A stretch of DNA of 32,000 nt from Trichodesmium erythraeum IMS101. GTDB taxonomy: Bacteria; Cyanobacteriota; Cyanobacteriia; Cyanobacteriales; Microcoleaceae. Shown one piece after another: positions 14,658-15,362 of the stretch. Numbering within the stretch: the first letter of the stretch is position 1; each line of letters opens with the position of its first letter. Below the pieces are notes generated by a model that saw nothing but the letters and a program-made list of their open reading frames with translations, did not search any database and was not told the DNA's origin. The DNA lies in contig NC_008312.1 in the NCBI RefSeq assembly GCF_000014265.1, positions 5,760,001-5,792,000 of the forward strand, in the 5' to 3' direction. A program made the position numbers and the translations under genes.

Positions 14658-15262
14658 AACTATTGCTCTATACGCAATAGTCAGAAAATTTCTAGACTCA
14701 TCTCTGGTATCTTGGTGCTTCAGAAAATGAATGAATTAACTATTGCGCAATAGTTGGAATATATTATAACTTACCCCTGACATCGTGGTGCTTCAGAAAA
14801 TGAATGAATTAACTATTGCGCAATAGTTGGAAGACATTATAACTTATCTCTGGCATCGTGGTGCTTCAGAAAATGAATGAATTAACTATTGCGCAATAGT
14901 TGGAATATATTATAACTTACCCCTGACATCATGGTGCTTCAGAAAATGAATGAATTAACTATTGCGCAATAGTTGGAAGACATTATAACTTATCTCTGGC
15001 ATCGTGGTGCTTCAGAAAATGAATGAATTAACTATTGCGCAATAGTTGGAAAACATTATAACTTATCTCTGACATCGTGGTGCTTCAGAAAATGAATGAA
15101 TTAACTATTGCGCAATAGTTGGAAGACATTATAACTTATCTCTGGCATCGTAATGCTTCAGAAAATGAATGAATTAACTATTGCGCAATAGTTGGAAAAC
15201 ATTATAACTTATCCCTGGCATCGTGGTGCTTCAGGAAATGAATGAATTATAGTTATATTCAC
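14658..15262. repeat. Tandem repeat, 73-bp unit x about 8, each unit with the perfect palindrome AACTATTGCGCAATAGTT
   Basis: The palindrome starts at 14738, 14811, 14884, 14957, 15030, 15103 and 15176, an exact 73-bp spacing. A leading variant hairpin AACTATTGCtctatacGCAATAGT lies at 14658-14681 and a truncated last unit near 15249. Two unit variants alternate (GGAATATATTATAACTTACCCCTGACATC versus GGAAGACATTATAACTTATCTCTGGCATC), which gives a 146-bp higher-order period. Confidence 0.95.
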
Positions 15263-15321
15263 TCTTCATCCCCTCTAATGGAGTATTTTATGGAATTACT
15301 TACTATTCTAGCAAGAGAAAG

Positions 15322-15362
15322 TCATTTAAAAATTTGCTATTGCATCGTTTTAGATGCAATAG
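15322..15362 (-). terminator. Intrinsic terminator candidate for the membrane-protein gene
   Basis: On the minus strand the sequence reads CTATTGCATC-TAAAAC-GATGCAATAG (10-bp perfect stem, 6-nt loop) followed by CAAATTTTT. It lies 45 nt downstream of the stop at 15407-15409. Its arms share the CTATTGC/GCAATAG core of the adjacent 73-bp repeats. Confidence 0.6.

Follow-up and report, generated by a model that had tools for sequence, protein, structure and literature searches.

The array described here occupies positions 14658 to 15362 of a 32,000-nucleotide stretch of DNA from Trichodesmium erythraeum IMS101 (contig NC_008312.1, positions 5,760,001 to 5,792,000; hereafter, the window). It lies behind the gene for a multi-pass membrane protein and belongs to an intergenic tandem-repeat family found in Trichodesmium, Okeania and Dapis. 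Its site is orthologous among these genera, its copy number turns over, and the perfect palindromes that dominate it in the window are a derived state. On balance, we favour reading the array as a locally expanded intergenic repeat, terminator-like and specific to this lineage, of the general kind represented by SPRITE, BIME and BOX elements, which probably grew by unequal recombination or slippage.

The most conspicuous component of the array is the 18-bp palindrome AACTATTGCGCAATAGTT, seven copies of which lie within 14738-15193 and begin at 14738, 14811, 14884, 14957, 15030, 15103 and 15176, a step of exactly 73 bp. No further copy exists in the window when up to two mismatches are permitted, and shuffled sequences give a chance expectation of zero. 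The more general pattern CTATTGC-N(0-12)-GCAATAG matches nine times against none expected: the seven palindromes, a hairpin at 14660-14680 with a 7-nt loop and another at 15337-15362 with 12 nt between its arms. This count confirms the nine hairpin sites, seven of them perfect palindromes at 73-bp spacing, that the initial annotation of this DNA had reported. Tandem Repeats Finder delimits the repeat as 14696-15249, with a period of 73, 7.6 copies and 92% matches. Read along the minus strand, the unit variants follow one another in the order C, A', C', A, B, A, B; unit 5 repeats unit 3 exactly, units 4 and 6 are one nucleotide apart, and a 146-bp register is clear in the last four units and approximate in the first three. 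The alternation of variants, the 146-bp super-repeat and the amplification in more than one step that had been proposed are borne out by this comparison. From the membrane-protein gene onward, the minus strand presents a stop codon, a run of GGGAGTA-like heptamers, the terminator hairpin of the gene, a decayed unit, seven loop-less units, a looped unit and a decayed core (Table 1). A CRISPR array can be ruled out: the 55-nt segments between palindromes are near-identical (0 to 8 differences per 73-nt unit) and are not unique spacers.

Searching for the palindrome outside the window, one of the checks that the initial annotation had proposed, was productive. In a genome collection with one genome per species the 18-mer occurs in 73 stretches, about 60 of which belong to Okeania, Dapis, Trichodesmium and allied metagenome-assembled genomes (MAGs) of the Microcoleaceae, with up to about 30 in a single Okeania MAG. 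Locus L033 (MAG P01_H01_bin.35; L-numbers designate loci or contigs retrieved for comparison) carries a diverged tandem array whose units align to the minus strand of the window, and scanning metagenomes for the hairpin and its flanking sequence yielded six more contigs with 3 to 8 units per array. A profile built from the metagenome units and run with nhmmer finds nine consecutive head-to-tail units in the window, all of them on the minus strand (E 2.6e-08 to 2.8e-04). Family matches also occur in 14 other loci, and E-values go down to 1e-24. Family 1, as we define it in this analysis, has arrays in L007, L033, the metagenome contigs L077-L082, L084-L087 (Trichodesmium MAG_R02 type), L088 (Dapis, two arrays) and L091 (Okeania), while none was seen in about 480 kb of sister-genus loci not selected for one.

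The units of family 1 are always arranged head to tail in one orientation. On the minus strand of the window, a family unit consists of a core of about 50 nt (AATTCATTTTCTGAAGCACC..CAGAGGTGATGGATAGTGAAATTTTCC), a hairpin with a 9-bp stem and a 7-nt loop, and a T-rich tail; the consensus reads AACTATTGC-GTATAGA-GCAATAGTT-AATTCATTTTCTGAAGCACCCAGCCAGAGG(T/A)GATGGATAGTGAAATTTTCC, with periods of 69 to 80 nt. The loop is found in both orientations, GTATAGA and TCTATAC, sometimes in a single array. Looped hairpins are the rule, loop-less ones being confined to the clade of the window and to two units of L033, and the looped hairpin at 14658-14682 is identical in arms and loop to hairpins in L077-L091. 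Family cores share a CAGAGGTGATGG box containing GAGGTGAT, a perfect 8-nt complement of the 16S rRNA 3' end (for example L088:5349-5400; window 14623-14640). In many units this box overlaps the ATG that opens a 13-codon frame, and it has been lost from the amplified cores of the window. Each core is flanked by GCAATAGTT...AACTATTGC, a pair that would pass for 9-bp inverted repeats; a solitary family copy with a target-site duplication was not found, and the edges of the arrays are decayed. The second Dapis array (L088:8135-8748; core ..GCCGGATGTAGATGGTTAGTG..; loops GTAGGTC or GTATAGA) is more diverged and lies 3 kb from the orthologous one. An element of about 115 bp bounded by GACCGACACACC...GCTGTGTCGGTC adjoins family-1 arrays on either side (L077:1417-1530, L082 (minus) ~340-450, L079:290-400) and may be another small mobile element that targets them.

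At the position corresponding to that in the window, behind the orthologous membrane-protein gene, a family array is present in L084-L087, L088 (Dapis BLCC M126), L091 (Okeania) and L092-L094; in L084, L088 and L091 it comes just after the same terminator, which is decayed there. Core counts at this site are 4 in L084, 2 in L087, 1 in L085, 5 to 6 in Dapis and 3 in Okeania, set against nine nhmmer matches in the window, or about ten with the decayed remnant. The comparison of array lengths, likewise proposed at the outset, was thus made across related loci and gives 1 to about 6 cores in relatives and 9-10 in the window. Turnover is fast, as L084 and L085 encode an identical protein in genes that are 99.5% identical, yet hold four cores and one core, respectively. 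Within the clade of the window itself, the L075 scaffold has a gap inside the array and the L076 and L092-L094 contigs end in it. The last three, close relatives of the window, also contain loop-less units. About 80 nt past the end of the gene, the 6-nt loop of its terminator reads TAAAAC in the window and the reverse complement, GTTTTA, in L092-L094, an inversion that is direct evidence of recombination between the hairpin arms. The unit loops GTATAGA and TCTATAC flip within arrays in the same manner, both kinds of flip being small inversions between hairpin arms.

A history consistent with these observations can be proposed. A family array would already have stood behind the membrane-protein gene in the common ancestor of Trichodesmium, Okeania and Dapis, its looped hairpin module pointing the same way as that upstream gene, and would since have grown and shrunk as its repeated hairpins and cores recombined unequally or slipped during replication. 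Within the lineage of the window, one unit may then have lost exactly its 7-nt loop, fusing the arms into a perfect 18-bp palindrome. The loop-less unit would have diverged into two variants, and the resulting 146-bp pair would have been duplicated several times to give seven identical palindromes 73 bp apart. The expansion itself was probably neutral or selfish rather than selected.

The folding properties of the two kinds of hairpin are very different. Two looped structures are flagged as terminator-like, both on the minus strand: that at 14658-14682 folds at -12.2 kcal/mol (z = -4.5) and that at 15336-15363, whose arms are the same CTATTGC/GCAATAG as in the repeat units, at -17.9 kcal/mol (z = -5.7). 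On its own, the 18-mer reaches no more than -2.7 kcal/mol, has one G-C pair in a 7-bp stem and goes unflagged by the terminator scan, and a whole window unit is indistinguishable from its shuffles (z = -0.1). A two-unit RNA reaches -30 kcal/mol, neighbouring palindromes being able to pair as a duplex of 18-20 bp. It is plausible that the looped hairpins resemble intrinsic terminators and that the loop-less palindromes fall short of this. The hairpins at 15336-15363 and 14658-14682 would act as minus-strand terminators or 3'-end protectors, and the seven inner palindromes would be by-products with little terminator activity, although any read-through RNA copies of them could form the longer duplex. 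The stack of bidirectional terminators that had been suggested is supported in part: the looped hairpins could plausibly serve as terminators on one strand, the minus, and the suggestion does not extend to the opposite strand or to the seven inner copies.

A similar asymmetry holds across the family. The terminator scan picks out family hairpins on no strand but the forward one: Dapis L088 and L082 have three each where 0.4-0.5 would be expected, and the window has two. The L088 and L082 arrays contain no promoter-like sites. At most loci the array follows a co-directional gene or falls between convergent ones, as in the window, L033, L077, L079, L080, L081, L084, the first L088 array and L091. 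There is no sign of added constraint on the units. Among 30 diverse units RNAalifold recovers only the inner four invariant hairpin pairs, with no covariation and no second helix. Across the full 10-pair stem, 82% of cells are paired; the inner six pairs are near-invariant and the outer pairs show some two-sided changes. The stem-pairing score is matched by 1 of 500 shuffles, for sequences that are related to one another, and wobble pairs (14 versus 9) favour no strand. Hairpins 2 and 3 of L084 have decayed (-3.2 kcal/mol, z = -0.2). Identity at four-fold sites of the membrane-protein gene is 0.87 between the window and a second Trichodesmium and 0.72-0.79 between genera, so that the observed similarity of units is roughly what neutral drift would give, and conservation among genera so closely related is uninformative. 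A CACC/GGTG helix masking the GAGG box was considered and found unconvincing, its register shifting between units.

Several known systems offer points of comparison, although only by analogy. SPRITE elements are dispersed short intergenic repeats with a terminator-like stem-loop core, biased to the 3' ends of genes and to convergent pairs (PMC3184786). Family 1 shares with them the short intergenic repeat, the terminator-like stem-loop and the bias to 3' ends and convergent genes, yet the two are unrelated in sequence. Most SPRITE copies are solitary, whereas the cores of family 1, with their conserved 50 nt, stand head to tail in arrays of 1 to about 10, and termination by its hairpins is predicted. 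The BIMEs of enterobacteria, built from REP sequences, and the BOX elements of pneumococcus are similarly intergenic, modular and mosaic, with a palindromic unit in variable copy number, and they too are strain-variable and prone to recombination. REPs, however, are G+C-rich, number hundreds per genome and alternate in orientation within BIMEs, in contrast to the A+T-rich stem and head-to-tail order of family 1. We identified no REP-associated transposase gene and no boxA/boxC terminal modules, and the window contains no Y1 transposase. In the NIMEs of Neisseria, dRS3, a short conserved palindromic repeat between RS units of differing sequence, is a known integration target of a recombinase. 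The likeness to the present arrays may lie in a single palindrome that seeds arrays of different composition. We know of no recombinase link for the present palindrome, and none was found in this analysis. Finally, the NsiR1 arrays of heterocystous cyanobacteria are also intergenic and tandem, with units below 100 bp that each end in a hairpin (PMC4030482). They differ in having a conserved DIF (TCCGGA) promoter per unit and a location next to hetF, whereas family 1 has no conserved promoter and no Rfam match to NsiR1, and its arrays occur at unrelated loci. By analogy, the SPRITE, BIME/BOX and NIME elements are nearer to the array than the NsiR1 arrays are.

The palindrome also has a life of its own beyond family 1. 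Of 68 occurrences in sister-genus loci, 37 are centred in an element of about 95 bp that resembles a MITE (a miniature transposable element with inverted repeats) and has the form CAGGACTTACGCA...TGCGTAAGTCCTG, seven belong to a second array family, one belongs to family 1 and 23 lie elsewhere, including two conserved coding sites. The MITE-like element is a long inverted repeat, CAGGACTTACGCAAAGGTACTATATATAGAGTTAAAA-[18-mer]-TTAAGCGCTATATATAGCGTCGCTGCGTAAGTCCTG, present at about 37 loci (L004, L006, L010, L017, L018, L020 and others); it is abundant in Okeania and Dapis and occurs once in Trichodesmium MAG_R04. The second array family has the form TTTATCTAAAATCTAAA[18-mer]RAATTAATTATC with periods of 50 to 124 bp. 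Its arrays at L001:4677-5086, L009:6850-7157, L044:2686-2790 and L064:5113-5440 have periods of 80, 102 and 50-124 bp and a palindrome that is the same or symmetrically changed (AACTGTTGCGCAACAGTT); several contain assembly gaps. The exact 18-mer is found in at least three unrelated repeat families of Okeania, Dapis and Trichodesmium. Together with the occurrence of the same arms at spacings of 0, 7 and 12 nt in the window, this agrees with the initial annotation that the arm sequence, and not the unit, is the conserved module. The sharing of arms across unrelated repeats remains the least explained aspect of the system. In viral collections, the 18-mer was found on one unrelated contig of 49% G+C and the looped hairpin on none, and a literature search for the palindrome sequence returned only an unrelated C/EBP paper.

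Five considerations weigh against the interpretation of the array as an expanded terminator-like repeat. Termination is a prediction from the nucleotide sequence. The L082 array and the second L088 array adjoin a divergent gene and not a 3' end. Two-sided stem changes, AACTGTTGCGCAACAGTT in L001 and L009 and a T-A/C-G extension in Dapis, could reflect selection for pairing, although conversion of one arm by the other can yield such changes without selection, since the loop inversions show that arms are exchanged. A perfect TATAAT stands on the minus strand 7 nt before each of the seven palindromes and could make every unit a transcription unit. Lastly, slippage at one locus fails to explain the spread of the 18-mer, because it recurs in three unrelated families and 68 places, which hints at a sequence-specific agent. 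There is no sign of a special regulatory role for the array, and small RNA units or a palindrome targeted by a protein retain a minority chance.

The alternative that fares best among those we considered, while still unlikely, is that the array is a series of tandem small RNA genes like those of NsiR1. Transcription of every 73-bp unit would then proceed along the minus strand from a TATAAT within it, starting at or in one palindrome and ending at the next with a U-rich tail, to give an RNA of about 90 nt. All seven units have the TATAAT at a fixed distance from the palindrome and a U-rich tract after it, and the conserved GAGGTGAT box, complementary to the 16S rRNA 3' end, could be a functional seed or mimic. 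Tandem small RNA arrays do exist in cyanobacteria, NsiR1 comprising 12 copies that all have promoters of their own (PMC4030482). Non-coding transcripts are very numerous in Trichodesmium and in part arise from tandem repeats (PMC4143802); the tandem-repeat RNAs described in that study, on T. erythraeum IMS101, are others than those of this array. The promoter, however, is unconserved, the rest of the family having AGTGAA where the window has TATAAT; a -35 element is absent, four promoter-like sites were found where 6.9 are expected, and a TATAAT per A+T-rich unit of 73 nt is not unlikely by chance (about 0.25 by our own estimate). The plus-strand TTGCGC-N16-TATAAC arrangement that had been offered as promoter-like is present in the sequence, but it shares bases with the minus-strand TATAAT through the palindromic TTATAA core, and promoter-like sites are not enriched. 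Rfam scans of the window at gathering thresholds, of the region to E 10 and of six related loci to E 0.5 gave nothing credible (the best match, idnO, scored 27 bits against a gathering threshold of 100), and the four invariant pairs, absence of covariation and wobble count given above do not speak for a conserved RNA. Furthermore, the units of the window lack the GAGGTGAT box, the palindrome is a poor terminator, and units decay in the sister species.

Slightly less credible is that the array is purely a product of slippage without function, its hairpins and T-tracts being incidental to A+T-rich repeat DNA. The rapid turnover of copy number, the decay of hairpins and boxes in some lineages and the near-neutral divergence of units are all what this would predict. 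Against it stand the persistence of the family at an orthologous site in three genera and at several other loci, and a terminator-like geometry that is always on one strand in arrays situated mainly behind 3' ends.

A shade lower again we place the view of the array as a set of recognition sites for a sequence-specific DNA-binding or processing protein, whether a dimeric repressor, a nucleoid protein, a recombinase or a transposase (compare dRS3 in NIMEs, and REP/RAYT). The seven perfect 18-bp palindromes, the strong over-representation of the 18-mer in sister genera in varied and sometimes solitary contexts, an arm sequence kept more than pairing alone demands, the loop inversions that show arms to recombine, and the break of synteny at the distal end of the array would all suit such a role. 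Half-sites, however, usually stand 7 nt apart in the family, and 12 nt separate them in the gene terminator; a single geometry of duplex binding is incompatible with this. The window holds no candidate gene for a binding protein or a Y1 transposase, its only transposase being IS630-like (DDE_3) and about 7 kb away. The 18-mer is also otherwise absent from the 32-kb window, and array periods are not helically phased. The operator array for a dimeric protein that had been put forward does not hold up, given half-site spacings of 0, 7 or 12 nt, the flipping of loops and the decay of arms in a sister Trichodesmium. Nor does the helical phasing inferred from the 73-bp period, a coincidence given that homologous arrays repeat every 69 to 80 bp and other arrays of the 18-mer every 50 to 136 bp. 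In a bolder version, no more probable, the palindrome would be more than a terminator stem and would be recognised by a protein or nucleic-acid-guided activity peculiar to the lineage (a recombinase, a transposase or a hairpin-binding factor). Such an agent would have copied the module into the centres of MITEs and into family-2 and family-1 arrays, the arrays so seeded, with their conserved GAGGUGAU box (the 8-nt complement of the 16S rRNA 3' end), being transcribed into RNAs that interact with ribosomes or mRNAs. What the analysis shows is a module common to otherwise unrelated repeats and the recombination of its arms; the agent itself is hypothetical.

Tandem micro-ORFs, with a 13-residue peptide per unit in relatives (M-D/G/S-S-E/K/Q-I/N-F-L/Q/R-L-L-R-I-E-Q) and a 15-residue one in the window (MPEISYNVFQLLRNS), are very improbable and were rejected: of 37 units with the start motif, 17 keep the 13-codon frame open, and this frame follows the strongly Shine-Dalgarno-like GAGGTGAT, but the ATG lies inside the Shine-Dalgarno duplex (an effective spacing of zero), frames are inconsistent with about 12 units frame-shifted or truncated, substitutions are mostly non-synonymous, a loop inversion turns RIEQ into LYTQ, and the units of the window lack the start motif.

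Table 1. Components of the array and its immediate neighbours, in minus-strand order (window coordinates)
Feature	Position	Strand	Basis
Gene for a 580-residue multi-pass membrane protein; array lies 3' of it on the same strand	15407..17149	-	Open reading frame; orthologues in Trichodesmium, Dapis, Okeania, Microcoleus
Heptamer-like GGGAGTA/GGAAGTA run between stop codon and terminator	15365..15406	-	Direct reading
Terminator-like hairpin of the membrane-protein gene, GCTATTGCATC-TAAAAC-GATGCAATAGC then AAATTTTTAA	15326..15363	-	Terminator scan, folding; 11-bp stem, hairpin at 15336-15363
Decayed leading unit(s): remnant hairpin CTCTTGCTAGAATAGTAAG and remnant core AATTCCATAAAATACTCCATTAGAGGGGATGAAGAGTGAATATAAC	15249..15316 (edges approximate)	-	nhmmer match 15260-15213; by-eye alignment with starts of orthologous arrays
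Seven 73-bp units, each core AATTCATTCATTTTCTGAAGCACCACGATGCCAGAGATAAGTTATAATGTCTTCC then loop-less palindrome AACTATTGCGCAATAGTT	14738..15248	-	Direct reading, repeat finder, nhmmer
Ancestral-type core (..CCAGAGATGAGTCTAGAAATTTTCT), nearer the family consensus than the amplified cores	14683..14737	-	Alignment to family
Ancestral-type looped hairpin: 8 arm pairs (10 by terminator scan), loop GTATAGA, then T-rich tail TAATTAATTTTC	14658..14682	-	Terminator scan, folding
Decayed terminal core AATTAATTTTCTAAAATACCAGAATATCAGAGGAGTATTAATTAATC, CAGAGGAG still kept	14611..14657	-	nhmmer match reaching 14623; direct reading
Dead short-chain dehydrogenase (SDR) gene, broken by in-frame stops and a frameshift; three reading-frame pieces	13773..14566 (about)	-	Pfam adh_short on 14037-14375; three-frame translation

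The window has 31.5% G+C, few genes and nine GCGATCGC (HIP1) sites; its genes include ftsQ, ftsZ, a ThiD/PdxK-type kinase, DndE, an IS630-like transposase, the 580-residue membrane protein, the dead SDR, an HMGL-like protein, FtsH and others. The earlier placement of the array between the 3' end of the membrane-protein gene and the 5' end of the dead SDR gene is correct, and all three are on the minus strand. The membrane protein matches no Pfam family, although some sources label its orthologues as glycosyltransferase RgtA/B/C/D-like. An identical sequence is present on Trichodesmium assemblies, a partial match to Trichodesmium sp. St16_bin4-tuft shows 100% identity over 57% of the query, and relatives at about 90% identity occur in Trichodesmium MAG_R02, Dapis and Okeania. 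The heptamer run behind this gene resembles the STRR repeats of filamentous cyanobacteria, and its copy number varies among the orthologous loci (L084-L088). Calls of the SDR gene are also split in L074 and L075. Synteny is lost at the distal end of the array (window 14560-14620), where the relatives L084, L088 and L091 continue with a conserved inverted repeat, AGCGTAACGCACC...GGTGGTGCGTTAC, and tachylectin-like genes, and the window instead has the dead SDR and HMGL-like genes.

Other tandem repeats are present in the window. Positions 7469-9620 hold five copies of a 430-bp repeat that is very A+T-rich, with 97% matches and no long ORF; abundant RNAs are known to be expressed in T. erythraeum from another, longer tandem array. 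A 71-bp repeat of 2.9 copies (23764-23971) directly follows the ORF of the IS630-like transposase (22666-23757; DDE_3 and helix-turn-helix), and a 69-bp repeat is present twice at 19821-19960. These last two repeats and the transposase sit in about 6 kb that separate DndE from the membrane-protein gene in the window and not in its relatives.

Trichodesmium is a globally important nitrogen fixer, and roughly 40% of its genome is non-coding and largely unexplained. The present analysis places one conspicuous piece of this non-coding DNA in a definable repeat family common to Okeania and Dapis, with a clear unit anatomy, a preference for sites behind genes and a fast turnover of copy number. The practical value is modest: the array explains assembly breaks and scaffold gaps at this locus, and could supply a hypervariable marker for population typing. 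For cyanobacteria, the locus is also a small system in which hairpin-mediated loop inversion, the loss of loops and the expansion of tandem units can be studied. The finding would carry greater weight if the units proved to be transcribed RNAs or the 18-mer the target of a protein.

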